A DNA stretch of 64,000 nt from an uncultured bacterium (GCA_903945195.1 CAJAUT010000009.1:23231-87230); one strand, 5' to 3'; counted from the first letter of the stretch, positions 33,732 to 56,992 are shown. Notes: a model not told the origin generated them from the letters alone. Numbers and translations are program-made.

Positions 33732-34187
33732 TTACTGTTGTGCATCTAACGCTTCGTTTACAAGTCCGTCGGCAACTGAGTTACCCTCTCTATAGGTATG
33801 GGAAATCTCATATTTTTTTAGCGTGGCCAGAAGCTTTTTTACTTCTAGATATTTTGGCAACAAACCAGGGTTTTTCACTTTAAACAGCCCTTTTATTTGG
33901 TTTACGATGAGGAGTGAGTCCATTTTTATGACCAGTTCGGCTTCTGGCTCGTTGTCTACCACCCATTTCACTCCGTGCAATAGTGCTTCGTACTCTGCAA
34001 TATTATTGGTGGTAATGCCGATATATTTACCGCATTTTTCCAGAATCATTCCTGCACCAGAGGTCGCTGAGGCTCCCACTGTGGCAGGCAGGCCCGCACC
34101 AGAGGTAATATCTTGGATAACATAACCATAAGCGGCAGGGCCTGGATTGCCGCGTGAGCCCCCGTCAGTGTTTAAGAGTAGTTTCAT
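33732..34187 (-). CDS. rnhA: Ribonuclease HI
   Basis: TDGGSRGNPGPAAYGYV and the DEDD catalytic pattern; 151 aa. Confidence 0.85.
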   Translation of the reverse strand: MKLLLNTDGGSRGNPGPAAYGYVIQDITSGAGLPATVGASATSGAGMILEKCGKYIGITTNNIAEYEALLHGVKWVVDNEPEAELVIKMDSLLIVNQIKGLFKVKNPGLLPKYLEVKKLLATLKKYEISHTYREGNSVADGLVNEALDAQQ

Positions 34188-35397
34188 GGGAAAAGTATAA
34201 CAGAGCGAGGACTAGAAATCCCTCGGTTAGTCCGGTATTTATGGCTGCGGCAATGGCTCCATAAGAGGGGATTAATAGCAGATTGAGGTTGGCGTTGAGA
34301 ACTGCTCCAGAGATATAGATCCCTAAAACTAGCTTGTCTTTTTTTTGACCGATGAGATTCCACATCAGTGGGGCGGTGATGTAGAAGAGGGGAAGGGAGA
34401 GAGATAAAATGCGCAGAACATTTGAGGAGAGATCCATGCCGGGTCGGACTAGATTGACCAGGGGAGAGGAGATCCAAAGTAGAGCAGCAACAAAAATACC
34501 AATTATGGCGAGAGTTTTAGTTGTTTGAGAGATTAGTTTTGCGCGGTATTTTTGCTGAGACTCCTGCATAGAGATGGGATATATCACGTTCATGACAAAC
34601 ACAGGAAGAACTAAGATGACATCAAAAATGCGATATGCAAAGCCATACTGACCAACTTCGCTCGAGAGGCGATAGACTCCTAGGATTATGGTGTCGATTT
34701 TGCTGGCTATCACACTGGCGATAATGATTAGGCCCAGAGTGAGAGAGCGACGAATAAGTAATAGAATGGGCTGCAAAGTTCCGATCACTCGCCTAAAATC
34801 GCGCAAGGATCGGAACTCAAGCGACAAAAGACAAATTGAACAAATAGCCATGGTGAGGTAGCCCAAGGTGTTGGCTAAAACCAGATAGGGGAGAGTGGGG
34901 GAGTAGCGCAAATAATATAGCGTCAGACCTGTCCCAACCAGAGAACCTATTACCACTGAGATTGTGGATTTCCAGTATGAGAGCTTGTATTGAAACCAAG
35001 AGTTGCCAGAGGTATAAAGACCCTGAAAAATGATGGCTAAGCTGCCCAACCAAAAGACTGACTTTACCTCCGAGGAATAACCTCCTGGCAAAGCTAAAAT
35101 AACCAAATTCAAAACCCCAATAACCAAGAGGGAAAGGAATATCCTGGCTAAGATAATTTTATAAACATGCTGCTGCATTTCTGAGTCGTTTTTGGAGGAG
35201 CGAATGCCTTCTGCATTTAAGCCAAAATCGATAGCTGTAAAGCCAACCGCCACCAAGACTAAAATTCTAGTTAAATCCCCATAAAGCTCGAGCCCTGCCA
35301 GGCGGATAGTGAAGTAGGTGGTAATGAGGGTGAGGCCAGCGCCAAAGAACTTGGCTACTAGCTGAGCGAAAGTGTTGCTAGCGATTTTTTTGAGCAT
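34165..35397 (-). CDS. MOP-superfamily polysaccharide flippase (Wzx/MurJ-like)
   Basis: 410 aa, about 12 TMs, polysaccharide-biosynthesis-protein-like N-terminus; contains family C palindrome copy C3 in-frame. Confidence 0.6.
   Translation of the reverse strand: MLKKIASNTFAQLVAKFFGAGLTLITTYFTIRLAGLELYGDLTRILVLVAVGFTAIDFGLNAEGIRSSKNDSEMQQHVYKIILARIFLSLLVIGVLNLVILALPGGYSSEVKSVFWLGSLAIIFQGLYTSGNSWFQYKLSYWKSTISVVIGSLVGTGLTLYYLRYSPTLPYLVLANTLGYLTMAICSICLLSLEFRSLRDFRRVIGTLQPILLLIRRSLTLGLIIIASVIASKIDTIILGVYRLSSEVGQYGFAYRIFDVILVLPVFVMNVIYPISMQESQQKYRAKLISQTTKTLAIIGIFVAALLWISSPLVNLVRPGMDLSSNVLRILSLSLPLFYITAPLMWNLIGQKKDKLVLGIYISGAVLNANLNLLLIPSYGAIAAAINTGLTEGFLVLALLYFSHETTLKH
34776..34817. repeat. Short palindromic repeat, family C (copy C3), in-frame inside the flippase gene
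   Basis: aagttccgatcactcgcctaaaatcgcgcaaggatcggaact, 42 bp; differs from C2 at about 3 positions. Confidence 0.65.
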
Positions 35398-36865
35398 GAA
35401 TGTAGTTTAGCACTGGGGATGACGTTGATAGATATAGCATAAGAATAAACATCCCCTGGGGGGAGGTGAGGAGGTAATGGTCGAAGAGGAGAAGGGGAAG
35501 GATGGGGAAGAATACTTTGAGGGTCTGACCCGGTCTCCAGATTGTATTTTGAAGTCGACTAAACATCTTGGCTGATAGCCAGGATTTCCTTAGCGGGTCA
35601 GACCCTGAGAGCAGGGCGAAAACTCCAAAAATGCCAAACCAAGATAAGAATAATGTGAAAGAGTTGTGGTCGGGCTGTAGTAGGCGGACTGAGGAATCGA
35701 CGCTGGGATAGGTAGAAATACTACTTTGGGCTCCGGTGCCAAAGACTGGAAATGAGCGAGCTACAGAAAAGGAGAGATTCTGCAAAGTGATGCGTCCTGA
35801 GCTTGAGAGATCACTGCGGGGAGGAATGATTAGAGATGGTAGATAGTAGGTCGTAGATAAAATGACTACGAAGTATATGAGTGAATATTTAATATTTTTA
35901 ATTAAATAGAAGGGAATGATGATCCCAAATAGAGAGATGGCGGCTGAGCGAGACTGAGTAAGGATGACAAGTAACACCACTGGAATCAGGAGTACCCATA
36001 GGGTCTGACCCGGTCTCCAGATTGTATTTTGAAGTCGACTAAACATCTTGGCTATTGGCCATGATTTCCTTAGCGGGTCAGACCCTTTGGCTGCAGGGTA
36101 CAACTGTAGAATTATTAGCAAACTAATTACGGCGTAACCTGCGAGAACGTTGGGGTGGGAAAAGGTGCCATAGGCTCTAAGTACGACTTGATCCATAAAT
36201 GAGCCTAGGGCGATGCCAGGAGAGCCCACAGATACCATCCGCTCGCCTAGGTAGTACATAATCCCGCCGACATAGTGACCTAGGTAGACTTGGGCCACTG
36301 CGAGGGTGGTTTGGAAGAAAAGGGAGAGGGTGAAGGCGAGAGGAATCACATAGGTTGCAACTGTAGGGTCTGACCCGGTCTCACGGCTTGTTTTTGAGGT
36401 TCGACTAAACATCTTGGCCGTTGGCCAGGATCTCCTTAGCGGGTCAGACCCTTGGGGCGAGAACGTGGCTGCAAAGAACAAAAAATACAAAAGGAAGTGG
36501 AGAGACCAGGAGAGAGTGGCGAGGGGATTCTGAGAGTAGAGGAGGTTGACTAATAATATGGGAGAAATCGCACCTATAGGGTCTGACCTTCCCGCCTTTG
36601 AGTCTGCGGGTTGGGCTCTTCCTTTAAGGTCAGACCCTTTAATCGCAAAGAACAAGATAATTAACAAGTCTAGGAAGTAAAGGGTGGGGGAGAGATAGTC
36701 GATGCGAATGCCGTAGACCAGGGTAGAACTAGGCCAGAAATGGAGACCAAACTGAGTGGCACCAAAAAAGATGATAAGGACGGCTAAATACTTAGACAGT
36801 TTTGAGAGAGATGAAGAGCCTTCTGTCTTGACCGTGGCCGTCTGAGTAACTCGTGAATTCTGCAT
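35378..36865 (-). CDS. O-antigen ligase-like (Wzy_C/WaaL family) membrane protein carrying four in-frame MITE insertions
   Basis: Polytopic membrane ORF of 495 aa. The repeat-derived segments GRAQPADSKAGRSDPIG (family B) and 3x GSDPLRKSW..AKMFSR..RPGQTL (family A) interrupt otherwise hydrophobic helices. Ligase call is by architecture and the AQVYLGHYVGG...SHPN region; the start overlaps jag, so the true start is probably downstream. Confidence 0.45.
   Translation of the reverse strand: MQNSRVTQTATVKTEGSSSLSKLSKYLAVLIIFFGATQFGLHFWPSSTLVYGIRIDYLSPTLYFLDLLIILFFAIKGSDLKGRAQPADSKAGRSDPIGAISPILLVNLLYSQNPLATLSWSLHFLLYFLFFAATFSPQGSDPLRRSWPTAKMFSRTSKTSRETGSDPTVATYVIPLAFTLSLFFQTTLAVAQVYLGHYVGGIMYYLGERMVSVGSPGIALGSFMDQVVLRAYGTFSHPNVLAGYAVISLLIILQLYPAAKGSDPLRKSWPIAKMFSRLQNTIWRPGQTLWVLLIPVVLLVILTQSRSAAISLFGIIIPFYLIKNIKYSLIYFVVILSTTYYLPSLIIPPRSDLSSSGRITLQNLSFSVARSFPVFGTGAQSSISTYPSVDSSVRLLQPDHNSFTLFLSWFGIFGVFALLSGSDPLRKSWLSAKMFSRLQNTIWRPGQTLKVFFPILPLLLFDHYLLTSPQGMFILMLYLSTSSPVLNYIHAQKNR
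35520..35606. repeat. MITE family A (copy A3), inside the ligase ORF
   Basis: gggtctgacccggtctccagattgtattttgaagtcgactaaacatcttggctgatagccaggatttccttagcgggtcagaccct. Confidence 0.8.
36000..36086. repeat. MITE family A (copy A4), inside the ligase ORF
   Basis: Near-identical to A3 (about 95 percent identity). Confidence 0.8.
36365..36452. repeat. MITE family A (copy A5, divergent left arm), inside the ligase ORF
   Basis: agggtctgacccggtctcacggcttgtttttgaggttcgactaaacatcttggccgttggccaggatctccttagcgggtcagaccct. Confidence 0.75.
36578..36638. repeat. MITE family B (copy B3), inside the ligase ORF
   Basis: agggtctgaccttcccgcctttgagtctgcgggttgggctcttcctttaaggtcagaccct. Confidence 0.8.
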
Positions 36866-37245: not shown

Positions 37246-37983
37246 TTATTTTCCCTTCTTCAAAATTTTAAATTTATAAGCATAGGTAAGTAGGGCGCCA
37301 GGGCCAGAAACTAGGAGTTGTTGGACTAGGGAGAACGCAGTGGTGATAACCCAGTAGAGAGCGAGACCTGAAGGGAATTGAATTGAGAAAATGATGGTCA
37401 TAATAGGCATCATAAAGACCATCTGTTGCTGCATGGTGGTGGCCATCTCGGCTACATCTTCTTTTTGCTCTTTGGTACCAGGTCTTTTTTCTGGTTCGTT
37501 TTCGACAGCTGGGAGAATGGTCAAAGACATTACAAACTGTAAGATGCCGGCTAGGACTGGGAGGATGTAGGTAGTATCTTTTGATTTGAGATCCCAGAGG
37601 AAAAAGGCGGAGTTTATGTCGCCCATGCCATTGCCATTTAGAGTGGCCATAAATACCTGGTAAAGGGCAATCAAAACAACAAACTGAGCAATAAATGGCA
37701 AACAGCCGGCGGCTGGGTTTACATTGTGAGTCTTATAAAACTCTAACTGTTTTTGCTGGAAGAGCTTGGCATCATGGCCATGCTTTTTCTTTAAGGAATC
37801 TAACTCTGGCTTGAGTTGAGCCATTTTTTTGGCTGATTTAAGCTGGGGGAGAGTGAAGGGGATCAAAATGCCGCGGACTACGAGGGTAAGCAAGATGATT
37901 GCAAAGCCTAGGTTGTGCCCGGTGATTTGGTACAGCCACAGCAGAGAATTTAAGATGGGTTGATAAATATAGTTGTGATACAT
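37246..37983 (-). CDS. yidC: Membrane protein insertase YidC (short Gram-positive-type)
   Basis: YIYQPILNSLLWLYQ, conserved AAGCLP and the 5-TM core; 245 aa. Confidence 0.9.
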   Translation of the reverse strand: MYHNYIYQPILNSLLWLYQITGHNLGFAIILLTLVVRGILIPFTLPQLKSAKKMAQLKPELDSLKKKHGHDAKLFQQKQLEFYKTHNVNPAAGCLPFIAQFVVLIALYQVFMATLNGNGMGDINSAFFLWDLKSKDTTYILPVLAGILQFVMSLTILPAVENEPEKRPGTKEQKEDVAEMATTMQQQMVFMMPIMTIIFSIQFPSGLALYWVITTAFSLVQQLLVSGPGALLTYAYKFKILKKGK

Positions 37984-38586: not shown

Positions 38587-39213
38587 TTATGCTGGAAGAC
38601 TGTTAAATGCTTGGTGGATTGCGGTCCCCACGTATTTTGCAGCAGAATTTTCGAGTTGTCCCGTCACGGAGTTGGGCCAGCTGGAGGGGGCCGAAAGGTG
38701 AATATTGCGCGGGCGAAGTAATCCTGGGACATTATTTTTATCGGTTTTCTTTCTAGGTTCATCTGAACATTCTATGTCCATGGTTAATCCAGTTTTTTCA
38801 TTGATTACCACAGTTAGTATTATTGAGCCGCCCGGGGATCTTTCTTTTGCGGCTTGTGCCAAAAATTGGAATTTCTCTGGACCACCCATCAACTGAATTG
38901 CTATGCCAAGCATTGATTGTTCATCTTGGGCCGTTTCGTCACTAACCTCCTGAGTGAGGATTGTGTAGCCCCATTCTTTTTTTTCTCGAGTGACTTTTTG
39001 CGTAAGATCTCCATACTCAGATGTATTACCAACATGTTTCAGGAGTTCCTCGTCCGAAACGGGCGCTCCAGATTCTTGACCGGCCCTCAATATGTCTCCG
39101 ATTTTAGACCTAGCGTCTGATGATGCAAATACATCTACCCAATGTGAATTTAATGCTTGCGTAAACGCAAGGGTTGCCCCATTTTGCAAATCTTCTGTCT
39201 TTTTTTCCATCAT
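38587..39213 (-). CDS. Hypothetical protein inserted between rpmH and rnpA
   Basis: 208-aa ORF with no recognisable motif or TM; co-directional, 30 bp upstream of rnpA and 48 bp downstream of rpmH. Confidence 0.4.
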   Translation of the reverse strand: MMEKKTEDLQNGATLAFTQALNSHWVDVFASSDARSKIGDILRAGQESGAPVSDEELLKHVGNTSEYGDLTQKVTREKKEWGYTILTQEVSDETAQDEQSMLGIAIQLMGGPEKFQFLAQAAKERSPGGSIILTVVINEKTGLTMDIECSDEPRKKTDKNNVPGLLRPRNIHLSAPSSWPNSVTGQLENSAAKYVGTAIHQAFNSLPA

Positions 39214-39261
39214 TATGAATTATTTATAGCACAATTTGAGCTTCGACCACTTGGAAAATAT

Positions 39262-39399
39262 TTAGACGGTCAATTTGGCGCGACCTTGAGCGCGGCGGCG
39301 AGAGATGACAAGGCGACCCTTATGGGAAGCCATGCGGATACGGAATCCATGGGTATTGCGGCGCTTGATTTTTTTAGGTTGATAAGTTCTTTTTGACAT
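39262..39399 (-). CDS. rpmH: Ribosomal protein L34 (not in the supplied ORF track)
   Basis: Manual reverse-complement translation gives [45 protein letters not shown], a canonical L34 sequence; 45 codons. Confidence 0.85.
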
Positions 39400-39477: not shown

Positions 39478-40845
39478 GTGGATAATGAGCTCATGGACAT
39501 CATATCAACTTGGAAGGCTGTACTTGGAGAACTAGAGGTTTCTATCTCCCCTGTATATTTTCCCACTTGGATCAAGCCACTATCAATTGCTTCGATAGAA
39601 AAATTGAGCGAAGAATCTCAGCTAGTAACTCTCCTTTGCCCGTCGGCTTACCACCAGACAATGGCTACTCAAAGATACCAGGGCCAAATCCAACGAAGTC
39701 TAGAGAGAATTACAAATTTAAAAACTGAACTGGCATATATTGTGGGGAAGGATGCTTCCACAAGTTTAGCGGCAGCACCTTCACCACTTTTTGATCCCAC
39801 TCCGCCTGCGGCTACGCTTGGGACAAGTGGACACCACAACCTAAACCCCAAGCTGACTTTTGAGACATACGTGGTTGGAGGATCCAATAATTTTGCTTAT
39901 GCGGCAGCACAGGGAGCGGCCAAGTCTCCGGGCACGAGACACAACCCACTCTTTATATACGGGGGAGTGGGACTTGGGAAAACCCACCTGATGCAGGCGA
40001 TAGGGCATGCAATATACAAAGACCATCCCGACTGGAATATCATGTATATCTCGGCAGAGACTTTTGGAAGCGATTTAATCGCGAGCTTACAAAATAAAAA
40101 GACTGCAGCTTTTAAAAAGAAGTATCGAGCTCCTAATGTGCTTTTAATTGATGATATCCAGTTTATCGCGGGCAAAGAATATACCCAAGAAGAGTTTTTT
40201 CACACATTTAATGAGTTGTATATGTCTGAGAGACAGATTGTGCTTACATCCGATCGTCCTCCACAAGAGATCCCAAAGATCGAGGAGAGACTGTCGTCTA
40301 GGTTTATGGGCGGACTTATGGTGGATATACAATCTCCCGATTTTGAGACTCGGGTGGCCATCCTTACACAAAAATGTAAGGCCTTAAATATTGAGGTACC
40401 CAGCGAAGTGATTGGTCTTATGGCTGAGAAAACTACTACCAACGTCAGAGAGCTAGAGGGGGCTCTACAGGGGATATTGACCAAGTCACTACCTAGTGGA
40501 GGCGAAATAAACAGCGATATGGTGCGCGAGTATTTTGGGGCTGAACATGAAAGGCGGAGCCAGAGAATCAAGCCAAATACGGTGATAAACAAGACAGCTT
40601 CATATTTTTCCTTCAAGCCAGCCGAACTTGTGAGCTCGAGTCGCAAGGCCCCGCTTACCAATGCCAGGCACACTGCCATGTATTTGCTTTATAAAGAACT
40701 GCATCTGCCATATGAGCAGGTAGGTAGACTATTTGGTGGACGAGACCATACAACTATTATCCATGCCGTTGAGAAAATTGAGGAAAAAATAAAGACCGAC
40801 CCAGAAATGGCAAAGATTATAGCGGATATAAAGCACGATTTATGA
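39478..40845 (+). CDS. dnaA: Chromosomal replication initiator DnaA
   Basis: AAA+ Walker A GGVGLGKTHL, sensor motifs and a C-terminal DNA-binding domain; 455 aa. The GTG start lies within a tgtggataa DnaA box, and an in-frame ATG at 39493 is an alternative start. Confidence 0.95.
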   Translation: MDNELMDIISTWKAVLGELEVSISPVYFPTWIKPLSIASIEKLSEESQLVTLLCPSAYHQTMATQRYQGQIQRSLERITNLKTELAYIVGKDASTSLAAAPSPLFDPTPPAATLGTSGHHNLNPKLTFETYVVGGSNNFAYAAAQGAAKSPGTRHNPLFIYGGVGLGKTHLMQAIGHAIYKDHPDWNIMYISAETFGSDLIASLQNKKTAAFKKKYRAPNVLLIDDIQFIAGKEYTQEEFFHTFNELYMSERQIVLTSDRPPQEIPKIEERLSSRFMGGLMVDIQSPDFETRVAILTQKCKALNIEVPSEVIGLMAEKTTTNVRELEGALQGILTKSLPSGGEINSDMVREYFGAEHERRSQRIKPNTVINKTASYFSFKPAELVSSSRKAPLTNARHTAMYLLYKELHLPYEQVGRLFGGRDHTTIIHAVEKIEEKIKTDPEMAKIIADIKHDL

Positions 40846-42194: not shown

Positions 42195-42281
42195 AAGATC
42201 TGACCCGGTCTCCTGATTGTGTTTTGAAGTCGACTAAACATCTTGGCCTTTGGCCAGGATTTCCTTAGCGGGTCAGACCTT
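42195..42281. repeat. MITE family A (copy A6), intergenic between dnaN and virB4
   Basis: agatctgacccggtctcctgattgtgttttgaagtcgactaaacatcttggcctttggccaggatttccttagcgggtcagacctt. The track ORF 41894..42298 is its translation. Confidence 0.8.
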
Positions 42282-46644: not shown

Positions 46645-49512
46645 TTACTTCTTTCTAAGGCATCCACTAATAAGAGATTTTGCGTAAAAACAACCCGATG
46701 TCCCAGAATCTGGGCGTACTATACCAGGGCCTGTGGCGTTGGCATCTACACAAGTAAATTTTTGACCTCCAGCATCTGGATTGATTACAACCCCTATGTG
46801 ACCGACAGTTTTATCACCACACTCATCTACTCCCATGATAAAAAGATCTCCTGACTGCATATTTGGACAACCAACCAAATATTTATATCCTTCTACTTTA
46901 TATGAGGCGTACATACAGGCATTTACTTGCGGAAAACCTGGTCCGGCGCTAGCGGCCGCCAATCCAACACACTGAAGATGTTTTTCGGTTGTTGGCCAAC
47001 CATCTGTAAATTGTGAAGTTTCTAGTTGAGAGACTGCGCCTTCAAATGGCTTCAGAGCAGCAATAACACACTGCCATTTTGGGCTAGATATGCCGCCTAT
47101 CATGAGGGGATTTAACTTACAGTCGGTAAGAGCTTTGTAGATACATTGGGCTGCGTTTGCGACTGGATTGTTTGTAGTAGTGCCGCTTATGTCACAAACA
47201 ACGGAGGCACCAATAGTTCCAGTTTCTATTTTTGAGGTGATGATGGCGTCGTTGCCAAGAGACATGGAAAGAGTGATGCCTCCAACTGCAACAACAATAG
47301 AGGTTGTGGCTATAGAGCTAATAGTGGCGCCTACACTGTTTACAAATCCAGCCCACCAAGCGCTAACTAGTGCTCCTGCAGAGCCAAGCGCCGTAGAAGC
47401 CCAACCAGCGATTGCTCCTGCTTGAGAATATAAATATCCTAGTAATGCTCCAAGTGCAGTCCCTATCATAAGTACTCCCCATAGTGGTAAGGAAAACCCA
47501 ATGAGGAAAAATGAAACTAGGGCCACACTAAAGCCAATGATTGCACCGAGGATTGTGGGACCAGCTATCCCCATGAGCATGGCTAGTCCAGCAATGTTTT
47601 TGAGTACCCAACCCGCAATGACGTCTGCATTTTTTATCGCTTCTGGTGCTCTTTTGGCTTGTTGCATGACCCAGAGTCCAGCCTGGATGGCAAAAGATGC
47701 CCCTCCAGAAAGAGATCCAGCAACTAACCCAGCGCCCACCCAAGCTAAAAACTTCCCGGCAAGTTTTTCTCCACCAATTTTGGCGCCTTGTTTGACTAGC
47801 CAGTTGCCAAATTTGATGCGGAAGTGGGTTTTTGCTGAACCAATAAATCCTTCATACGAATACCCACCATTTTTGTACCAAGTGAGTCCTGTTTTGAGCC
47901 ATTGCGGCAGGTTTTTATTTGTGGCAATTTTTGAAATCCATCCACCCCATGATGCCAGTCGATGATCTGAAGAAAGAAAAAAAGCGATAGTTCTATGATT
48001 GTTTAAAAAACCATTATATGCTGTAGAAATACTTTCTCGAACACTGGTAACGGCGCCATAAACATTTCTGATAATAGGGATGTTTTGTGGGGACAGGGCG
48101 GTTTTGATTTTAAGAACGGCTTGATCGTAGGCGAGCCTAGATTTGTAGACACTGTCAATTAGGCCATGGTTTTCGCCGAGATATTTTTGAAGGTTGTCTA
48201 ATTGAGATTTGATGTCAGACGGGCTATATCCAGATTTTAATAATTGACTGGCAAGCTGTTCTCCCGAATAACCACTTCTGGTTAAAGTGACGATTAGCGG
48301 ATCTACGCCAGAATTTTTGGCAATGTGTGAGACTAGGCTGGCTGGCCTTAATCCTAAAATATCTGGTAAATCTCCAGCACTTGGTTCTAGGCCATTGGTA
48401 ATGCGGGCAAAATAAGTCCCAGTAGAGGGGTGATTGAGAGCCGCTTCTATAAGTCGATCTTGATCAACTTGTGTTAAATTGTATTTTTTGATTAATTCTG
48501 GGGTGATGGCGTTGCGCAGAGCCCTAACTTCGAAAGGGTCTTTTTTGATAAATCTATCGCTAAGCGAGGGCGATTCTAATGCATCAATAGTTGCTGAATG
48601 TAGTGATTTAACTAGATCATTACCCAAAGAATTTGGGTTGTCTCTACCCACGCCAGTCTCTTTTTGCCAGGAATTGATGGTGTTTTGAAGCTCATCTTTG
48701 GCCTGCGTGGGAGTGAGACCATGTTGTTTGTTGATATTTGCAAGACTTTCGAGATTTTCGTCTGTGTCTGATTTACTGAACCTCTCATTGTTGAGGAGAG
48801 TTGAGAGGTTTGTGGTGATATGGTCTACGTCCTGCCCTTCGGCAACGAGCGTGTTTTGGAGGGCTCTCCAGGTTGGAGAATTGGCTACGGCTTGATCTAG
48901 GAGGGCCTTGGTTTGGGCCTGGGCTTTAACTGGATCTGTAGTATCTATATTGTGAAGGGCGGGTGATAGTTCGGCTATCAAACTATTTTGCATTTGTCTG
49001 ATGTAGCCTGAAGAGGCCGAGCCAGATCTAGTCAGTGGCTCTAGAGCCTGTGCGACACGAGAATCTAGGAGATTTTTTGTTTGCCAGTACTTTTGAGCCC
49101 GCCTAACGGATTCGTTGTAGGCATTGATCTCGACCTTTGGATTTGTGGTTTTTTGGTCAACTTCTTCTAGGTGTGTTTGGTAGGCCCGGAGGATGTTTTC
49201 TCTGGTTTCTCTATCTGGGATGGAAGACTCTTTTTGTTTGTTGGCAAAAAGCAAAATACTATTGTATAGAGGGCGATAATTGGAGGGATTTTCCAGATCT
49301 AAAATCTTATCGCCAAGGAGGTTGTTGCGCTGGAAATCATCGACCAATGCTTTGACTTCACGATTGGTAAAGACGACTTTGGAGTCGCCGCTACCCAGCT
49401 CATAATCGTCTTTGGGGTGGCGGATGAGCTGAGAGACTAGTTCTAGCACTCCAAAAGGGGTACCAAAATTGCGAACTAGCTCTGATTTGGTAAGGTTGGC
49501 CATATACTCCAT
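46645..49512 (-). CDS. Large T4SS-associated protein: N-terminal soluble region, VirB6-like polytopic membrane segment, C-terminal CHAP (NlpC/P60-like) peptidoglycan hydrolase domain
   Basis: 955 aa; Gly/Ala-rich TM cluster in the middle (GLAMLMGIAGPTILGAIIGFSVALVSFFLIGFSLPLWGVLMIG...); C-terminal Cys...His arrangement (LQCVGLAAASAG...GCPNMQSGDLFIMG...GHIGVV) typical of CHAP domains. Confidence 0.55.
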   Translation of the reverse strand: MEYMANLTKSELVRNFGTPFGVLELVSQLIRHPKDDYELGSGDSKVVFTNREVKALVDDFQRNNLLGDKILDLENPSNYRPLYNSILLFANKQKESSIPDRETRENILRAYQTHLEEVDQKTTNPKVEINAYNESVRRAQKYWQTKNLLDSRVAQALEPLTRSGSASSGYIRQMQNSLIAELSPALHNIDTTDPVKAQAQTKALLDQAVANSPTWRALQNTLVAEGQDVDHITTNLSTLLNNERFSKSDTDENLESLANINKQHGLTPTQAKDELQNTINSWQKETGVGRDNPNSLGNDLVKSLHSATIDALESPSLSDRFIKKDPFEVRALRNAITPELIKKYNLTQVDQDRLIEAALNHPSTGTYFARITNGLEPSAGDLPDILGLRPASLVSHIAKNSGVDPLIVTLTRSGYSGEQLASQLLKSGYSPSDIKSQLDNLQKYLGENHGLIDSVYKSRLAYDQAVLKIKTALSPQNIPIIRNVYGAVTSVRESISTAYNGFLNNHRTIAFFLSSDHRLASWGGWISKIATNKNLPQWLKTGLTWYKNGGYSYEGFIGSAKTHFRIKFGNWLVKQGAKIGGEKLAGKFLAWVGAGLVAGSLSGGASFAIQAGLWVMQQAKRAPEAIKNADVIAGWVLKNIAGLAMLMGIAGPTILGAIIGFSVALVSFFLIGFSLPLWGVLMIGTALGALLGYLYSQAGAIAGWASTALGSAGALVSAWWAGFVNSVGATISSIATTSIVVAVGGITLSMSLGNDAIITSKIETGTIGASVVCDISGTTTNNPVANAAQCIYKALTDCKLNPLMIGGISSPKWQCVIAALKPFEGAVSQLETSQFTDGWPTTEKHLQCVGLAAASAGPGFPQVNACMYASYKVEGYKYLVGCPNMQSGDLFIMGVDECGDKTVGHIGVVINPDAGGQKFTCVDANATGPGIVRPDSGTSGCFYAKSLISGCLRKK

Positions 49513-49536: not shown

Positions 49537-52500
49537 TTGGGCATGGCAGAAAAGGAAAAATTAAGCGAGGTTAAAGAACTAGAGAGAATGGTGCGCTCTG
49601 GTGAGACGGATGCTAGTGGCGAAGATAAGGACGGACTTAAATTCCTAGAGCAACTCATGGTGTTTATGAAGTTGAAGTTGCTGAGAAAAACAACTGAAAC
49701 GGGTGGGGTAAAAAAAGAAACAATAGACAATCTAGAAAAAGATTTACTTGGGTCAGATAAAGATAAAAAAGAAAAAGCAAATCTTAACCTTGAAAGTCTT
49801 TTAAAGAAGATGGTGGGAATTGAGACTGGCATAGAGAATCAATCGATTGACGTATTAATTGCTAAGGCAAAAATGCCTGAAGATCAGAGAGATCATGCTA
49901 CCGCTCTCGAGATGAGAGTCATTGAGCTGAAAAATGGTGAATATACTGGCGATAAAAAGGCGGAAGCCGAATCTATAACAAAAGGATTTTTACAAATCAG
50001 CGAGAGTGTTGGTATCTTAAAGACGGGTGAGAAGACTAAAGAGCAAATAGTGACAAAATTAAATGCAGAACTATCTGAGGTTAATGAAATTAAGCGAAAA
50101 CTAGAAGTAGTAAAAGTAAAAGAAGAAGTAAAGACTGAAAAGGGCGCAAAAGAAAGAGTAAATGTGGCAAAGAGTAAAACACTTGAGTTCGTAAACAAGG
50201 AATTGAAAGACGGTAAAGACAGAGTTACTAAAGTTCGCGTGGGGAAATCTGATGATAGGCGGGGTAGATTGTTGCAAAAAGATATAGACGATTTTTTGAA
50301 AGTTGTCCAAACAGAGGTAAATGATCCTAGGCAAATGGAAGACCTTAAGTCTGATGATTGTATAGATAGAATATACAAAATCAACCAGCTAGCTAGGTTG
50401 GCTTCAAAAATGCAATCTCCTAGCTTGGCCACTGACAACTTTTTTGAGATGCAAATTCCATATATGGACCAACTAAAGAATAAGTTAAAGGATGACAAAA
50501 TACAAAATGGGGAAGAGGTGTATAAATTTGTTCAAGAGGTCTGGTACAGCAAAAAGCTACCCAATCCAGAAGAGCTTGGAAAGAAACTTCTAAATATTAC
50601 TAGTGGTAAGAGGGGTGAAGAGACTGCTAGGACCACAACCCGTCGAGATGGATCTAAAAAAGATGGGGCGGATTTGTTGTATGAGAACGGAGAGGATCCA
50701 CTACAGTTTATTCAAGATGCTTTGGGATTTGAACAAAAAAGCAGGAGGGCCCCCGGATCGATCATGCTAGAACAGATTAAGGACTTACTAGAAAACAATG
50801 GCCTTGATGTTATTAAATTAGAAGGCACCTTTAAAGGGCGTAGCAGGGAAGAATTTGCTCAAGCAATGCAAATGAAATATGGTTTTGAACCTAATCAAGC
50901 TGGCTTACTCTATGATTCTATCTTCAAGAACAGAACAGCATTTAGAAATGAAGCCTTTACGAAATATTTGGAATCAAAAGACTATAAGGGTTATACGGGC
51001 GCCCTGATATCATATCTGTCCAAGGTGGGCTTGCGCGAGGGAATGAATGATTTACAACTAATGAGTCTCATGAATGATGCTCGATTTACTCTGGCTGAGG
51101 CAGGTCCAGAAGGAGAGAAGCTACTAAAGGTGTTTAAGTCGTTTGAGAGCATAGCATTTTTCCATGACAAATACTTTAACTTGGGCGCAAAAGAGTATTC
51201 TGAGATATTGAACCATTTGGGTGATGGGCCTTTGTGGGTTTGGTTGCAGGAGCATGCAGATGTACTAAGGGAAGAAATCACCTTTACAGAGGGGCCAAAA
51301 AGAGGAGAGAAGGCTAGCGTGTCAGTTCTTGAAATACATGACATGATGCAATCACAATATTGGTCTAAACGACTTGTCTATACTCCGCCAATTCGAGAAG
51401 GAGAGTTGTTTGACGAAATGATGCTGAGTCATTTGCTGAACGGGGACGAGCCAATTGTCATAAAAGAAAACGGTGATATTTTTGATATGAACAAAAAATT
51501 ATTGGGAAACAAAAATCATGATCTCATGGTGGATGGTCAGCCCAAATCTTTGGCAGCATTAATTACTGATTCTAGGTGGAAGGTGGGAACTGCACAGGAC
51601 ATATGGCGTTTTACTGGTCGTAATTTAAATATCTTGGATGACGTCGATATCGCTAAAGCACTAGGAGTTAACAAAGCCCTGCTTGGGATAAGTAAAATAT
51701 GTAGATATAGCGAGCAATATGAATTCATCAGTTCTTATCAACACGAAATAATGGGTGCTGATACATTCCTTTATGATTTTGATTGGTACAAAAATACCTT
51801 TGGAAAGGGGTTGAAAAAACTATTTGGAGAAGCGGGGATAGAGGCAAAACAAGCTGAGCTGATACAAAAGCTAATTTCAAAACACATCATGAGTAAAAGG
51901 CGCGTCGGAACTGAGGTCTTTGATGGAAGTAATCTGGCAATAGAGGATGTAAAGCTCTTGGCGAGTGGGTCGAAGCGAATGACTTTTGATGAAGCTAAAA
52001 CAGAATATTTGGGTAGACTTGCCAAGAGGGGAGAAGATATTTCTAAAATAAGGATAGATCCAAACGATGCCAGTGATAAATATGCGATGCAAGTTAATTT
52101 ACTCATGGAAAAATGGAATGACAATGCATTTAGTGAGGATGAAATGGCACAAATTAATGCACTTCCTTGGGACAAAATTAACAAAATTTATGCAAAAAGA
52201 CTAGGAAAAGAAAGTAGCGCAGTGGGCAATGACTTTAAAGGGTTTATAGATAACTTCTCGTACGCCAGGCTATCTGAATACGTAGAGAGTTTACGTGGTA
52301 CAGACATGAAGGACTATGGCGGATACTACGCTATCGCGGCTGAGGCAGTGGCTGGCGCTATTAAAGCTGGACTAGCAAATGGGTCTTCTGAGGCACTAGC
52401 TAAGATGATTGGAGCTATGGAAACTTATCATCCTTATGATGCAAATGGGCTTAATAGACTAGGGCTTGCGATGTGGAGAGAGGTACTGACATGGAGAACT

Positions 52501-52887
52501 CATAAGCTAACTAGACGCGTACCAAAACAATCTGGTGGATATGTCCTGCCAAATGGTGACCTAATGGTGAACAAATATGGTAGGTGGGAAAAAGAGATGA
52601 AGACTGAAATTTTACTCCCTGGAGAAAGTTTGATGAGTAAGTATAAATATCTTGTGACTTGGGGGTTTGAAGATGTAGAGATGTCAATGAGGTTTTTGGT
52701 TGGTAGTGGGATATTTACAAGAAAAGATGGCGATGCAGAGCTGTTTAATCGGTTTGGACCAGCGGCATGGAGATGGTTGCGTAGAGCTATACAGCTAAAT
52801 GACTGGGAATATTTCTGGATCCAACTAGAGAAGGATGGGAACGAAGAAATGAAAAGCGTCTTTAAATATATATTTTCAACAAAATAA
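49537..52887 (+). CDS. Very large hypothetical protein (1116 aa), divergent from the CHAP gene within the T4SS locus
   Basis: Long open frame with a Lys/Glu-rich coiled-coil-like N-terminal 300 aa; no Walker, HUH or other motif recognised; the only plus-strand gene in the 42-59 kb locus. Confidence 0.5.
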   Translation: MGMAEKEKLSEVKELERMVRSGETDASGEDKDGLKFLEQLMVFMKLKLLRKTTETGGVKKETIDNLEKDLLGSDKDKKEKANLNLESLLKKMVGIETGIENQSIDVLIAKAKMPEDQRDHATALEMRVIELKNGEYTGDKKAEAESITKGFLQISESVGILKTGEKTKEQIVTKLNAELSEVNEIKRKLEVVKVKEEVKTEKGAKERVNVAKSKTLEFVNKELKDGKDRVTKVRVGKSDDRRGRLLQKDIDDFLKVVQTEVNDPRQMEDLKSDDCIDRIYKINQLARLASKMQSPSLATDNFFEMQIPYMDQLKNKLKDDKIQNGEEVYKFVQEVWYSKKLPNPEELGKKLLNITSGKRGEETARTTTRRDGSKKDGADLLYENGEDPLQFIQDALGFEQKSRRAPGSIMLEQIKDLLENNGLDVIKLEGTFKGRSREEFAQAMQMKYGFEPNQAGLLYDSIFKNRTAFRNEAFTKYLESKDYKGYTGALISYLSKVGLREGMNDLQLMSLMNDARFTLAEAGPEGEKLLKVFKSFESIAFFHDKYFNLGAKEYSEILNHLGDGPLWVWLQEHADVLREEITFTEGPKRGEKASVSVLEIHDMMQSQYWSKRLVYTPPIREGELFDEMMLSHLLNGDEPIVIKENGDIFDMNKKLLGNKNHDLMVDGQPKSLAALITDSRWKVGTAQDIWRFTGRNLNILDDVDIAKALGVNKALLGISKICRYSEQYEFISSYQHEIMGADTFLYDFDWYKNTFGKGLKKLFGEAGIEAKQAELIQKLISKHIMSKRRVGTEVFDGSNLAIEDVKLLASGSKRMTFDEAKTEYLGRLAKRGEDISKIRIDPNDASDKYAMQVNLLMEKWNDNAFSEDEMAQINALPWDKINKIYAKRLGKESSAVGNDFKGFIDNFSYARLSEYVESLRGTDMKDYGGYYAIAAEAVAGAIKAGLANGSSEALAKMIGAMETYHPYDANGLNRLGLAMWREVLTWRTHKLTRRVPKQSGGYVLPNGDLMVNKYGRWEKEMKTEILLPGESLMSKYKYLVTWGFEDVEMSMRFLVGSGIFTRKDGDAELFNRFGPAAWRWLRRAIQLNDWEYFWIQLEKDGNEEMKSVFKYIFSTK

Positions 52888-52902: not shown

Positions 52903-54417
52903 TTATTTGGCTTTTCCGCCTGGTTCTTGTGGAGCACTACTGAGACCTGTGTTGCGGATTTGATTTCCAAGCATTTTGGATTGGAGGCGGGCTGCGCGCT
53001 CTTGCTGGAGACTGGAGATGTAGGCTTTGGGTAGGTATGAGGCTGCGCCATAGCCCTGTCCAATACCAGCCATGATCTCTGAGGTGTATTTGCTCTGCTC
53101 GACCTTTAGCGTGTCTCTGGTCATTTGGGCAGCTGCTGGGACCATCATAATGATAAAGATACCCAGGAGTGCCATAAAGGTTTCTTGGATACTAACTGGC
53201 GTGGTTACTTCAGAATTGTCGACAAAAGATAAAAATGGTGGAACCCATCTGGTAGAATCGGTCTCTCCACCCTGTAGATATCCCGTATTTACCTCGAATG
53301 GATTTACTTGATTACCTTCAATGACTAGTTTTTCTGTACCAGGTCCCATCAGTATGGCTCCAAATAATAACATGGCTAGCACTGTGGGGAAAACGGCTGC
53401 ATTGGCTAGTAGATTTCTAGCCCAGTTGGAAAAAGATTTTGATCCAGGTATACCGTTCATTAGTAGTTGAAGGGGAGACACCACAGTTAGGACGATGATC
53501 ATAAAGTATGACTGCATCAATTGCCAGAGAGTCTTGAACATGCCAATAAGTACTCCTAGTCCTATCACGGCAAATGCTAGTCCTTGAGTGACTCCACCTA
53601 GTTTGGCTAAGCCACTAGAAGCAGTGATTTGGTCTGTAAAAGAACCAATGGCTAGGGCTGCGATTGTGTGGATTCTATCTCTACCAGATAACATCATATA
53701 CATGATGTTGTTGTTTAACACTTTATCCATCACTCCACCCGCATCTTTGATGAGACTTCCAGCTTCGGCGATATAAACTATTAAATACATAGATAAGTAA
53801 ATGAGGTCAACAATAAATCCCGCAATGGCGTACGAGAAGGTAATGAGTAGAAGAGTGACTAGTAAGTTGGGGAGACTATTTTGGATGGAAATGATGGTTT
53901 GAGCATTTATCTTTGTCCTGAGCATGATCATGACCCCGATAACTAAGAAGATTATGATGTAAAGAGAATAGGCTACATTTCTAAAAGCTTTCCAGATTTG
54001 TAAGACTGGAGATAGTGCTTTGTAACCAATTCCTTGAGCTTGGACTTTGGTAAATCCAGGAAGCCCAATATTGTTGCCTAGATCGGCGAGATATTCGCCC
54101 GTATTGATTGGTGGCACCATAAGCGCAGTTGTAACGTACTTGGTAATTCTAGGTGTGATGCCAGAAACTGCTTGAGATCCGTCGGCAGAAGGGGAGTAAC
54201 CAACAATATATTTTTCTTGCGACATTTCTTCTGAACTGACAGTGGCACCAATGTCTGAATCTGGTGAGCAGCCGCTGACGTTGCATCCTACGGCAAAAGT
54301 ATAGGTTTCAAAAAGTCCACGACTAGGGGCGACTTGTCCATCTGCGGCGCGCGCCATTGTGACAAAAGAAAATGCGGACACGAGAAGGAGTGTAAAGATA
54401 GATAGTATTTTACGCAT
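52903..54417 (-). CDS. VirB6/TrbL-like polytopic membrane protein with a signal peptide
   Basis: 504 aa; signal peptide MRKILSIFTLLLVSAFSFVTMARA; at least 6 TM helices with Gly-rich segments; no enzymatic motif. Confidence 0.5.
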   Translation of the reverse strand: MRKILSIFTLLLVSAFSFVTMARAADGQVAPSRGLFETYTFAVGCNVSGCSPDSDIGATVSSEEMSQEKYIVGYSPSADGSQAVSGITPRITKYVTTALMVPPINTGEYLADLGNNIGLPGFTKVQAQGIGYKALSPVLQIWKAFRNVAYSLYIIIFLVIGVMIMLRTKINAQTIISIQNSLPNLLVTLLLITFSYAIAGFIVDLIYLSMYLIVYIAEAGSLIKDAGGVMDKVLNNNIMYMMLSGRDRIHTIAALAIGSFTDQITASSGLAKLGGVTQGLAFAVIGLGVLIGMFKTLWQLMQSYFMIIVLTVVSPLQLLMNGIPGSKSFSNWARNLLANAAVFPTVLAMLLFGAILMGPGTEKLVIEGNQVNPFEVNTGYLQGGETDSTRWVPPFLSFVDNSEVTTPVSIQETFMALLGIFIIMMVPAAAQMTRDTLKVEQSKYTSEIMAGIGQGYGAASYLPKAYISSLQQERAARLQSKMLGNQIRNTGLSSAPQEPGGKAK

Positions 54418-54443: not shown

Positions 54444-56990
54444 TTACTTACAGCTATAACTTTCATAATAATCAAATGCCCGTTTCCAGTGATTGTTGTC
54501 TGCTGTTTGAGCTCCTGATGATCCTCCAGGTCCTGAGTAAGCAGCTTCTGTACAGTACCCAGTATATTGACGCATAGAAGTGGATATTCTTTCTGGTGTC
54601 CACTCGCACGAGTTGGCTGGACCAGTAGCACTAAGATAGAAAGGATGTCCCCAACATGATGCTGGAGCAGGATACGCTCCTGACCCACCACTTTCTTTGG
54701 CTAGCTTGGCGGCTGCGGCAAAGGTGGCATCAATCACGTTGCATGGTGAGAACTCTACTCTTCCAGAGTCAATGGCTTTTGATGATTCACTATAATCTGG
54801 AGACCAATCATATTTACCACCACCCTTTGGGGTAGACAAGAAAGCAAATGGACCTCTTGCTCCTGTCCCAGATGCTAGTGAATCACAATTTGGTACTTCG
54901 CCTCCGCAAACGCTCCAAGCCTTTACGTTTGCCTCAGTCCAATCCCAACGATAATCACCGCCCTCAGAAATAAATGCACTATATAAAATAGATGCGGGAA
55001 CCTTGTAAGTGGTGGCAGCCAAATTAAATATTTTTACTAGAGTTGGGGGAAGTCCCGAATCACACAACGAACAACTGAGATCTGAGCCACTTAAATCTGG
55101 AAGTTCGGTGGAGCTACAGGTATTGATTAATTTGGAAGGTTGGCCGCAGGAATTGACGGCAGTGCCATCTGCGATCATGCGCGGGGTATAAATGTAATCT
55201 GATCTATCTGTACCTTTGCAAGGCATGAAAGCGGAGTTGTTTACTTTTATGGTTTTAGACAATCTTTCATTCATGCCAAACAACTCTCCTTCTTTTGAAA
55301 CCACAACATTGATATCATTATTTGTTTTCAAATATTCCTTAGATAGTTCGGTGGATGGCATGAGATTTGCTAGAGATGGGAGCTCGAGAAATCTACTGGC
55401 CTGAGACCAGGATTCGCCGATCATATAGGTGCGTCTTTTGTTGGGGATTACTTTTAATAATATCTTCATTGAGATATCAAATAAGTTGGTCATGGAGGGC
55501 TCACCGTGCACCGCATTAGCATCTTGCTTGTTATAGTCTTCTTCGGAGGCTTTTGGCCTTCGAGGCGGTGGATTTTTCTCTGGATTATATAATCTATTTG
55601 GATAATCTAGTATAGAGCCAAGCTTCTTAACTGTTAGTGGTCCATATCTAGTCACAGTGTTTTCGGGAGTGGCTGATTCGGCCTCGGCGTCTGTGTTGTT
55701 ATTGCCAAAAACCAAGGCAGTTGGCATGTGAGTGACGTCTGCTCTTGGCTCTGCAAAATAATTTGCAACTAGAGGAATCTTTTTCCCCATATCTGCCAAT
55801 AGGGCCTTACCAATTGCTCGCGGATTAGTAAGTGATGCTTCGATAATCATTCCCTCTGTTGCGGCTCTAGCAGAATAATTGTCTACCAAGGTACCTTTGT
55901 GAAGAGCGAAGTTGTATTTGCCAGACGTATCACTTTTACTGCCAAGTGCTAAAACTAGCGACCCGATTGATAAGGCAGGAGCATTTGTGTCTTTAGGGTA
56001 GAGGGGGGTACATTTGAAATATTTTACCCAATCCTCGTCATTTTTTTCGGCAAGTTTAAAGTTGTATAACCACTTTGCATACCAAGTGCTGTTTTGGAGA
56101 TAGCTGGGAACAGGGCGAAGCGAGGGATTTTCTGCGGCTCTAAACTCTGCATCTATTTGTTCTTGACTGAAGCCTTCTGGTAGTGGGGCGGAAAGATCGT
56201 ATTCTGTTTGCCAAATTTGTCGATAGTTTTCTGGCTTCATGTCTCCTGGTATTTTATCGTTGTAAATATCGATAAATTCGAGAGTTTCTCCATCTATTGT
56301 TACTTTTTCTTTCCAGTTGATTCCTCCTACAGGGAGCTCTTTGTGAGGATTGTTACTTTTTTGATAATTGATCCAGGTGGAAAATGCTCTCCATAGCAAA
56401 CTAAGCCTTAGTTGATTTTGATAATCAGAGGGCAATATCATGTCGTGTGAGCCCATGGTAAGTACGTTTGATGACTGAGAGCACTGATTGGCGGTGAACA
56501 TGTGATTGTAGCTTTGCCAACCTGGGACCGCGAGCCCATCAGTCCCACTTGAGTCGGTGCCTATAAATTTTTTTGAGTATGCTGGACTTTGATTAAATTT
56601 ACATTTTCCCTTTGTAGAGAGTGGATTTTGCTTGTTTACCATTCTTTGACATTGACCAGTGATGGGCCTGTCTTCCTGTCGATCATTTTGTTGTGGATAT
56701 ATAACATTGGCAATTTTGTCACACGAAGTTGGGTCTGTCGTATCACAGGTGACGTTTTTTAACTCGTCTTCGTTTAATACAATCATGGTTTCGGGGATCC
56801 CTTTTTCTCCTTCTAGAATGATTTCTAGGTTTTGATCTGCAATATATCCTGTAATCATTTGAGAATATATATCTACATCATATTTTGTTTTTGGTTGTTC
56901 TGCATTGACTCCTCGATCTATTTTTGGGAATATAACAAATAATCCCAAAAATATTAGGATAGATATTGAAATCTTTTTTAGAATAATCAT
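54444..56990 (-). CDS. Large secreted Cys-rich hypothetical protein
   Basis: Start taken at the internal Met (MIILKKISISILIFLGLFVIF, signal/TM) to avoid a 70-bp overlap with the upstream paralog; about 848 aa; many Cys in the C-terminal 250 aa. Confidence 0.45.
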   Translation of the reverse strand: MIILKKISISILIFLGLFVIFPKIDRGVNAEQPKTKYDVDIYSQMITGYIADQNLEIILEGEKGIPETMIVLNEDELKNVTCDTTDPTSCDKIANVIYPQQNDRQEDRPITGQCQRMVNKQNPLSTKGKCKFNQSPAYSKKFIGTDSSGTDGLAVPGWQSYNHMFTANQCSQSSNVLTMGSHDMILPSDYQNQLRLSLLWRAFSTWINYQKSNNPHKELPVGGINWKEKVTIDGETLEFIDIYNDKIPGDMKPENYRQIWQTEYDLSAPLPEGFSQEQIDAEFRAAENPSLRPVPSYLQNSTWYAKWLYNFKLAEKNDEDWVKYFKCTPLYPKDTNAPALSIGSLVLALGSKSDTSGKYNFALHKGTLVDNYSARAATEGMIIEASLTNPRAIGKALLADMGKKIPLVANYFAEPRADVTHMPTALVFGNNNTDAEAESATPENTVTRYGPLTVKKLGSILDYPNRLYNPEKNPPPRRPKASEEDYNKQDANAVHGEPSMTNLFDISMKILLKVIPNKRRTYMIGESWSQASRFLELPSLANLMPSTELSKEYLKTNNDINVVVSKEGELFGMNERLSKTIKVNNSAFMPCKGTDRSDYIYTPRMIADGTAVNSCGQPSKLINTCSSTELPDLSGSDLSCSLCDSGLPPTLVKIFNLAATTYKVPASILYSAFISEGGDYRWDWTEANVKAWSVCGGEVPNCDSLASGTGARGPFAFLSTPKGGGKYDWSPDYSESSKAIDSGRVEFSPCNVIDATFAAAAKLAKESGGSGAYPAPASCWGHPFYLSATGPANSCEWTPERISTSMRQYTGYCTEAAYSGPGGSSGAQTADNNHWKRAFDYYESYSCK

Positions 56991-56992
56991 AT

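Follow-up and report, generated by a model that had tools for sequence, protein, structure and literature searches.

Small palindromic elements inserted in frame into an O-antigen-ligase-like gene of a Collierbacteria-like bacterium

We analysed a stretch of 64,000 nucleotides from an uncultured bacterium (GCA_903945195.1, CAJAUT010000009.1:23231-87230; hereafter the window), in which a gene on the minus strand (35378..36865) encodes a polytopic membrane protein of 495 aa that belongs to the O-antigen-ligase-like WaaL/Wzy_C family and carries four repeat-derived inserts. Our results indicate, with a probability of roughly 0.8, that these inserts are small non-autonomous palindromic elements comparable to the Rickettsia palindromic elements (RPEs), that they reside in a live gene, and that they were moved by a replication-coupled single-strand mechanism. 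The initial annotation had described three copies of a family A and one copy of a family B as RPE-like insertions in this open reading frame (ORF). Repeat finding and blastn recovered all four copies at the same coordinates, the 495-codon frame is open with no stop or frameshift from the inserts, and the estimate that one fifth of the gene is repeat-derived agrees with our count of 323 of 1488 nt (22%). The likeness to RPEs inserted in frame into a live gene is supported by purifying selection on the host gene, by the permissive loops in which the inserts lie, and by the occurrence of the same elements in frame in unrelated genes.

The four inserts, all on the minus strand, are numbered from the N-terminus of the protein. 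Site 1 is a 61-nt family B element (36578..36638) that encodes aa 77-96 (GSDLKGRAQPADSKAGRSDP) in the loop between transmembrane helices (TM) 2 and 3. Site 2 is an 88-nt copy of family A variant 2 (36365..36452; aa 139-167, GSDPLRRSWPTAKMFSRTSKTSRETGSDP), and sites 3 and 4 are 87-nt copies of variant 1 (36000..36086, aa 261-289, GSDPLRKSWPIAKMFSRLQNTIWRPGQTL; 35520..35606, aa 421-449). Their fold energies lie between -31 and -38 kcal/mol with z-scores of about -5: -31.2 kcal/mol (z -5.35) at site 1, -37.7 (z -4.47) at site 2, -35.5 (z -5.51) at site 3 and -36.4 (z -4.68) at site 4. The peptides that had been reported for the A and B copies stand, except that the second half of the copy at 36365 reads TSKTSRETGSDP and not LQNTIWRPGQTL.

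To place the inserts in the protein, we used an AlphaFold model built from 83 orthologs (pTM 0.73). All four inserts are found between helices, in stretches of low confidence, with pLDDT values of 55-58 for aa 77-98, 41-55 for aa 139-167 (modelled as coil), 54-60 for aa 261-289 and 47-49 for aa 421-449. Across the 83 orthologs the length of the four insert loops varies with a standard deviation of 5.7-13.6 aa, whereas every other loop shows 0-1.9 aa. The alignment with orthologs that the initial annotation had proposed thus places the inserts in four short loops, which are the only ones in the protein to vary in length. In orthologs free of inserts, the loops at sites 1, 3 and 4 have a net charge of +1.5 to +1.9, as does the short cytoplasmic loop L8, while the value at site 2 is +0.4; the alternating conserved loops of fixed length are near neutral. 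WaaL has a topology of 12 helices. From this topology and the positive-inside charge pattern we infer that all four sites are on the cytoplasmic face. The family A peptide has a net charge of +4 and is predicted to be partly helical at sites 3 and 4. In all likelihood the inserts are translated along with the native segments.

The families share a common anatomy. The window contains 11 occurrences of the decamer GGGTCTGACC against an expectation of 0.07, and the termini AGGTCWGACC and GGTCWGACCT are common to families A (87-88 nt), B (61 nt) and C (40 nt), so that element size between termini ranges from 40 to 88 nt. An alignment of 36 copies shows that family A consists of a 13-bp outer stem and two inner hairpins. 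Pairing is retained in 97.8% of the cells of this alignment versus 92.8% in shuffles, and we counted 62 cells with double changes versus 15±6 in shuffles (0 of 500), a signal of compensatory covariation that collapses when the partners are slid. The second inner hairpin behaves as a swappable module, occurring as v1, v2 and GC-hairpin variants and as a form with a 10-nt deletion. Rfam returned no match for the elements at gathering or permissive thresholds. A palindrome of 9 nt is also contained in each terminus. It reads GTTCSGAAC in a further family, D4, and GGTCWGACC in the three families above; these palindromes look like binding sites for a dimeric protein. Family A moreover contains AAGGAG (v2) or AAGGAA (v1), followed by an inner hairpin and an in-frame ATG (K-M-F-S-R). 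Some calls of the host gene are truncated: P0001 ends up at 425 aa, and P0005 and P0122 begin within an element. As the latter two calls start at the element ATG, family A can mimic or supply a translation start.

On one side, the elements are accompanied by the flank motif AWWGGTAY, which is common to A, B and C and whose GG at positions +4/+5 is present in about 32 of 35 copies. In the host gene it adjoins the 3′ end of the site 3 copy (35991..35999, minus strand, sense ATGGGTACT), and equivalents on the same strand are found at 36570-36577 for site 1, 36356-36364 for site 2 (degenerate) and 35511-35519 for site 4 (one mismatch). Read as protein, the motif gives L-W-V, Q-G-T or I-G-x. D4 has the counterpart TTTGCGAT on the corresponding side, and the opposite flank is weakly pyrimidine-rich. 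A check for target-site duplications, also proposed earlier, showed none above the mismatched-pair null: direct repeats of at least 5 nt were present at 43% of A copies versus 42% in the null, and the offsets of direct repeats in the B and D4 flanks were inconsistent. Single apparent duplications (GCGATT at site 1, TGCGAC in locus L157) failed the same null.

To assess how the elements are distributed, we collected 44 metagenomic loci with the family A core; the window and loci L001-L169 together gave 36 distinct A copies. Fourteen of these (39%) are in genes, compared with 92% expected from coding density (p-value of 9e-16), and 22 are non-genic. Family A has one stop-free frame out of six, and 14 of 14 genic copies use that frame. 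Since genic copies are rarer than expected and all are in the open frame, most genic insertions appear to be lost, and those that persist preserve the reading frame and lie where they can be tolerated. The majority of the B and D4 copies are located in genes, in frame. The breadth of host families was taken from Pfam scans of ORFs spanning an element; in the 44 loci the genic hosts include a C39-like peptidase, VanZ, YidC, a class A penicillin-binding protein (PBP1) and a DinB-type polymerase, in which B sits in the IMS domain. The outermost bases of family A differ with location: 12 of the 14 copies with AGGG...CCCT termini are genic, and 17 of the 22 with AAGG...CCTT are non-genic (Fisher p-value of 4e-4, with sites partly non-independent). 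The v2 variant is genic in six of six cases. Viral contigs contained no family A core. An exhaustive HMMER search with the 32-aa A peptide, a query that is too short, gave three matches, all to unrelated low-complexity repeats, and a word-indexed search with a 62-aa concatenate of v1 and v2 gave no candidates, although exact matches exist.

We calculated, for each copy, the GC skew of the ±3 kb flanks on the strand that carries the coding-sense orientation. For family A the sense strand was the C-rich one without exception, in all 32 copies, which come from 22 of 22 loci and include 18 of 18 non-genic copies (p-value of 5e-10). The same orientation was found for B (7/7) and for D4 (13/13 once matches scored in both orientations are discarded). 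The 12 copies of A, B and D4 in the window all have one DNA orientation, with host genes on both strands. The window contains 24.3% G and 18.4% C, and the skew of its plus strand is positive over the whole 64 kb, including the dnaA (39478..40845)-dnaN region. As the skew is positive in 20 of 20 plus-strand genes and in 34 of 42 minus-strand genes, it is not driven by gene direction. A one-directional skew over the whole chromosome is known for Collierbacteria, Beckwithbacteria and Ch65 (PMC7143001), and the skew of the window matches it. Given the strand-locked orientation, a gene can tolerate A only if the C-rich strand is its sense strand. The G-rich strand corresponds in sequence to the lagging-strand template, and on it each element has the conserved tag at its 5′ side.

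The lack of target duplication, the tag on one flank and the uniform orientation relative to a chromosome-wide GC skew together point to a single-strand mechanism. Transposition by HUH/Y1 enzymes has this signature, namely no duplication, a one-sided tag, hairpins and an orientation linked to replication, and tagged REPs have been described in such terms (PMC3733652). The elements would spread by replication-coupled single-strand transposition with an HUH/Y1-type enzyme, as do IS200/IS605 elements or the repetitive extragenic palindromes (REPs) with their REP-associated tyrosine transposases (RAYTs). Survival in genes would depend on a selection filter that passes only inserts on the right strand and in a permissive, basic loop of the cytoplasmic side, with a frame that is open and is restored by indels at the junctions, and homologous recombination between strains would additionally shuffle whole loop segments.

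The strongest competing explanation, which we nevertheless consider unlikely, is that the inserts are cut-and-paste MITEs (miniature transposable elements with inverted repeats) moved by a DDE transposase, such as Tn3-derived TIMEs or IS630-type elements, with a strand bias that is secondary, e.g. due to selection against inversions between copies of opposite orientation. The term MITE-like in the initial annotation is apt as far as small size, terminal inverted repeats and the lack of an internal transposase are concerned; the absence of target duplication and the strictly strand-specific orientation do not fit it. The 13-bp perfect terminal inverted repeats with both arms co-varying are as expected for DDE elements, and families of different content share termini as if one transposase served several. 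Furthermore, families of multicopy repeats that end in these inverted 10-nt sequences (GGGTCTGACC...GGTCAGACCC, 58-88 nt overall) are present in unrelated genomes, among the matches listed in Planctomycetaceae, Pirellulaceae, Halomonas, Oribacterium and Massilia; one Oribacterium locus (L066) has four such copies within 750 nt. The shared 10-nt termini could be a coincidence or a widely shared transposase-end motif. We take the termini GGGTCTGAC to resemble the start of the Tn3 inverted repeat, which is a weak lead, as the 5-bp duplications expected of Tn3 are absent. DDE transposition does not explain the lack of target-site duplications above the null, the lack of TA termini or the one-sidedness of the flank motif, nor an orientation that holds in 32 of 32 copies including the non-genic ones. 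To our knowledge, DDE MITEs are not known to show skew-locked orientation. Neither the window nor the related loci showed a DDE transposase with such termini at its ends.

Next to the proposed single-strand transposition, recombination probably contributes to the turnover of the elements, which is fast. Across orthologs, the four loops hold at least six families: A (two variants), B (in two frames), C, D4, E and F. D4 encodes the peptide FRSLRDFRRVIGT in ortholog loops, and the family E palindrome has the termini GAGGAGAC and GTCTCCTC. The closest ortholog in the set, L003 (dS 0.44), has E instead of A at site 2 and C instead of A at site 4. At site 1 it carries B with compensating -1/+1/+1 indels together with a 33-nt A fragment, giving a net difference of 33 nt. 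B is also present at site 1 in L001 and in L170, and L003 reads it in another frame. L170 (GCA_965094495.1) is a sister strain with flanks 99.4-99.6% identical to the window. Its sites 1 and 2 are identical to those of the window, and at sites 3 and 4 it has F where the window has A. The tracts exchanged there (133 versus 76 nt and 118 versus 73 nt, i.e. differences of 57 and 45 nt) take in adjacent native codons, and the sequence that separates these sites has an identity of 97.4%, compared with about 99.5% elsewhere (9/349 versus 36/7898 differences; p-value of 9e-5). This suggests that the replacement of sites 3 and 4 in L170 is a single imported recombination tract. The valyl-tRNA synthetase (ValRS) of a sister strain differs from that of the window exactly at its F insert, by +6 aa.

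These data also bear on the idea that the repeats are no longer mobile, and that old loop cassettes are spread by homologous recombination or gene conversion only. The joint replacement of sites 3 and 4 with a more diverged block between them, the native codons included in the replaced tracts, and the absence of a site-specific signal among the copies are in its favour. Recombination cannot, however, account for one 87-nt sequence in genes and spacers that are unrelated. Nested or tandem arrangements, such as B with a partial A in L003 (site 1) and in the window (7488-7578), indicate insertion events, and the conserved tag together with the orientation locked to one strand speaks for a mechanism of insertion. 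We therefore consider immobility improbable.

A further question is whether the inserts have been domesticated, being useful as basic amphipathic helices on the cytoplasmic face, as regulatory or stabilising RNA hairpins, or as internal starts. A copies are 80-95% identical regardless of genome or site, although synonymous sites between the genomes are saturated. The L001 copy at site 3 is 95% identical to window site 3, 95% to site 4 and 94% to an intergenic copy, and overall the copies at orthologous sites are not closer to one another than to other A copies. Native DNA of L001 is 71% identical to the window gene; the element thus shows 4 differences in 87 nt versus 29% expected (p-value of 8e-9), and such conservation far beyond that of the host gene could reflect a function. 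So could the basic A peptide (+4) with its predicted partial helicity at sites 3 and 4, the AAGGAG and in-frame ATG that gene callers pick up, and intergenic copies located at convergent gene ends. On the other hand, any given insert is missing from most orthologs and F takes the place of A in a near-isogenic strain, so that no single insert is needed; copies in genes are far rarer than expected, and the pLDDT of the inserts is low. Recent spread from a constrained master sequence explains the conservation equally well. Domestication is accordingly a little less probable still than immobility.

Next, we considered how the reading frame is maintained. The length between termini is a multiple of three in 7 of the 14 genic A copies and 3n+1 in the other 7. 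The multiple-of-3 length bias suggested in the initial annotation therefore fails at the level of the element, and an intrinsic multiple-of-3 length was rejected. Likewise, the figure of 29 codons per A element is correct for the two 87-nt copies and depends on the boundary chosen; the third copy, at 36365, is 88 nt and not a multiple of three between the same boundaries, with a +1 indel in mid-element that shifts its second half. It is at the level of the loop that the frame is kept, as allelic differences of 57, 45, 33 and 18 nt are all multiples of three. The reading frame is restored at the element junctions.

Removal of the elements before translation, through an intron-like RNA or programmed DNA excision, would yield a protein free of repeat peptides. 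The very stable hairpins with precisely defined ends would suit this, as would a sequence conserved beyond the needs of the peptide. Bacteria of the Candidate Phyla Radiation (CPR) are also known for intervening sequences in rRNA genes (PMC7143001). However, excision would leave frame, stops and orientation unselected, yet all 14 genic A copies are in the single open frame, the allelic length differences are multiples of three, and the same B DNA is kept open in two frames through compensating indels. With no Rfam match in addition, excision is very improbable.

The host gene itself shows no sign of decay. Its protein scores 30.7 bits against the Pfam Wzy_C model, just under the cutoff of 31.7, because about 107 repeat-derived residues interrupt the domain. 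We found 337 homologs, and PF04932 was present in all of the 120 listed except one (P0092). Typical homologs are 380-400 aa long, which equals the host protein without its inserts, and their source names are Microgenomates or Collierbacteria. The best PDB match of the model in Foldseek was WaaL (7tpg_B, probability 1.0, TM score 0.35-0.41). The host protein resembles the WaaL/Wzy_C family (PDB 7TPG) in its twelve-helix architecture and the large conserved TM9-TM10 loop, and differs from it by the interrupting repeat-derived residues. It retains 28 of 28 columns that are invariant among the 83 orthologs and about 80 near-invariant ones. Comparing the native segments of the window gene with five orthologs over 319 codon columns, we obtained dN/dS of 0.12-0.27 at dS of 0.44-2.2. 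The gene is intact in L170 and in syntenic orthologs that have inserts of their own. The gene order rpmH, rnpA, yidD, yidC, jag, host gene, flippase, RNase H is syntenic in related contigs. By these comparisons the host gene is under purifying selection and probably functional rather than decaying, and the bacterium is a Collierbacteria-like member of the CPR (Microgenomates). A decaying pseudogene with a coincidentally open frame of 495 codons, to which the sub-cutoff Pfam score and the truncated gene calls might point, is effectively refuted by the low dN/dS in every pairwise comparison, the retained residues, the intact gene in the sister strain and the syntenic orthologs, and the small odds of four stop-free in-frame inserts when A is open in one frame of six, the low score being accounted for by the inserts.

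Several points weigh against RPE-like elements moved by a single-strand mechanism, the reading that we prefer. The transposing enzyme is hypothetical: we found no transposase of any kind in the window (62 ORFs) or in 389 kb of related DNA. A tblastn search of these 389 kb with Y1/HUH queries, which is a weak negative, gave no match better than E = 0.5, and its best marginal region is not a transposase. Typical IS200/IS605 elements end in two subterminal hairpins that differ from each other and lack long inverted repeats at the termini, and an extragenic position belongs to the definition of REPs. The loci of the strand test include some orthologous sites, so that independent insertions number fewer than 32. 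The flank motif may belong to the element itself or reflect a preference for certain targets, and the element boundaries are provisional. Vertical inheritance does not explain the conservation of the elements, which could come from recent spread, horizontal transfer or constraint on a master sequence. Finally, the case for translation of the inserts consists of frame and orientation statistics.

Among known systems the closest is that of the RPEs. RPE-1 to RPE-10 are palindromic repeats that occupy conserved genes without breaking the frame, and neither a transposase nor a target duplication is known for them (Ogata et al. 2000, 2002; PMC2229807, PMC10969869). They occur in Rickettsia and measure 105-146 bp (PMC2229807). 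Translation has been demonstrated for RPE-gmk. The elements described here are similarly dispersed palindromes with terminal inverted repeats of about 12-13 bp, present in spacers as well as in frame in genes, with a recurrent peptide per family, functional host genes, permissive insert positions and a reduced genome. They differ in their CPR host and in their size of 40-88 nt versus 105-146. In addition, several families here share termini and replace one another at the same loops, even in near-identical strains, and orientation is locked to a replication-related strand. We know of no report of such replication-strand-locked orientation for RPEs. The elements are not members of the RPE families, from which size and host, rather than sequence comparison, set them apart.

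In their presumed mechanism, the elements are closer to the REP/REPIN-RAYT systems and to IS200/IS605-derived elements (PATEs), with which they share hairpins, the lack of duplication and an orientation tied to replication, with the top strand on the lagging-strand template; their one-sided motif may correspond to the short tag beside the hairpin in those systems. In a REPIN, two inverted REPs form a single hairpin some 70-110 nt long, an arrangement similar to the architecture of family A. The differences concern location, with 39% of A copies genic and in frame whereas REPs are extragenic, and the ends, where one long inverted repeat stands in place of the two different subterminal hairpins of IS200/IS605. 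The tag also differs: tagged REPs carry GTAG or CGTC (PMC3733652), and here it is AWWGGTAY with a GTAC core, with a putative role as cleavage site. Bacterial MITEs such as Correia/NEMIS (107-bp form), ERIC/IRU and YPAL have also been found fused in frame (PMC2229807). They are alike in their length of about 100 nt, inverted termini, long stem-loops and open frames, with stop-bearing variants confined to spacers. Their TA termini, target duplications, DDE link and occasional genic copies contrast with the GC-rich stems, strand-locked orientation, lack of duplication and several inserts per gene seen here. In full-text searches on CPR, Patescibacteria or Microgenomates we found no description of MITE-like, palindromic in-frame elements of this kind. 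What is new here is the strand-locked orientation, the termini common to several families, and the strain-level turnover at four permissive loops.

The window contains further copies of the same families. Intergenic A copies on the minus strand are located just 3′ of the L25 gene (29896..29982), where the element has a stop in frame and the site is filled in L005 and empty in L004 (1-nt spacer), and between the convergent dnaN and VirB4-like genes (42195..42281), where the copy is present in L170 too. A 322-aa nucleotidyltransferase (ORF 7350..8318, minus strand) has five element-derived pieces, all on that strand: a degenerate A at its 3′ end (7278..7364, with 81 nt between termini at 7280-7360), an in-frame A fragment (7488-7517) abutting an in-frame B (7518-7578; together 7488..7578), a D4-like palindrome of 39 nt in frame (8100..8138), and an in-frame B at the N-terminus (8244..8304). 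In L145 and L151 the orthologous genes carry B at these positions as well. A 41-nt D4 palindrome at 12955..12995 (minus strand; -19.1 kcal/mol, z -5.48) lies in the ValRS gene, has the DNA orientation of the other copies but is read in frame from the plus strand, and gives the peptide SSDHSPKITQGSEL. Directly upstream of it is a low-complexity stretch GQSENSEGQNVGKSENQNIQ (12880-12950, aa ~423-448), which could be what earlier insertions into this permissive site have left behind. Another 41-nt D4 palindrome (34777..34817, minus strand; -22.3 kcal/mol) is in frame in the flippase-like gene 34165..35397 and encodes EFRSLRDFRRVIGTL. Family F, AT-rich and about 45 nt long, is in frame in ValRS at 13581..13625 and has a second, intergenic copy at 44903-44947. 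In the rnpA ORF, a 38-nt perfect palindrome with 13-nt arms AACTCCCGGAGTT...AACTCCGGGAGTT (38421-38458) may represent a further in-frame palindromic family.

Other features of the neighbourhood were noted in passing. About 506 nt separate rpmH (39262..39399, minus strand) from rnpA, compared with 56 nt in L170; the region 38698-39259 is a strain-specific insertion that holds most of a 208-aa ORF (38587..39213, minus strand) without a Pfam match, and L001 has a family A copy at the equivalent place. A type IV secretion/conjugation-like cluster (42273-46635, minus strand) with a VirB4/TraG P-loop ATPase, a TraC-like and a PrgI-like protein adjoins dnaN and is kept in L001 and L170. Beyond it are four very large ORFs without a Pfam match (46645..49512, 49537..52887, 52903..54417 and 54444..57062). 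The window also encodes two Fic/DOC-domain proteins, one fused to a MerR helix-turn-helix, and an AbiEii/AbiEi toxin-antitoxin pair (at 14174-15202, 20012-20992 and 23572-24847), as well as two YidC paralogs (5961..6752 and 37246..37983).

Our results indicate that selfish DNA residing in frame in genes, so far essentially a curiosity of Rickettsia, recurs in unrelated reduced genomes. Its density is high, with four inserts in one gene, two in ValRS and five in the nucleotidyltransferase. The strict orientation provides a testable handle on how the elements move, which was never resolved for RPEs. In CPR genomes the inserts push real domains below Pfam cutoffs and inflate apparent protein divergence, and the ATG and Shine-Dalgarno-like sequences that they contain lead gene callers astray, to truncated calls. 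The inserts also mark permissive loops of membrane proteins and can serve as natural strain markers. As a more tentative proposal, which we hold to be rather less probable than its negation, the elements may belong to a superfamily of Collierbacteria-like CPR bacteria with the termini GGTCWGACC or GTTCSGAAC that moves in an HUH/REPIN-like, replication-coupled single-strand way, has every genomic copy oriented the same way, colonises genes in frame as a routine, and inhabits chromosomes that apparently replicate in one direction. If this is true, the elements would be a main source of strain-level indel variation in the protein loops of these reduced genomes, and a REP-type system would have turned into an RPE-type protein-coding parasite, which has not been described so far.

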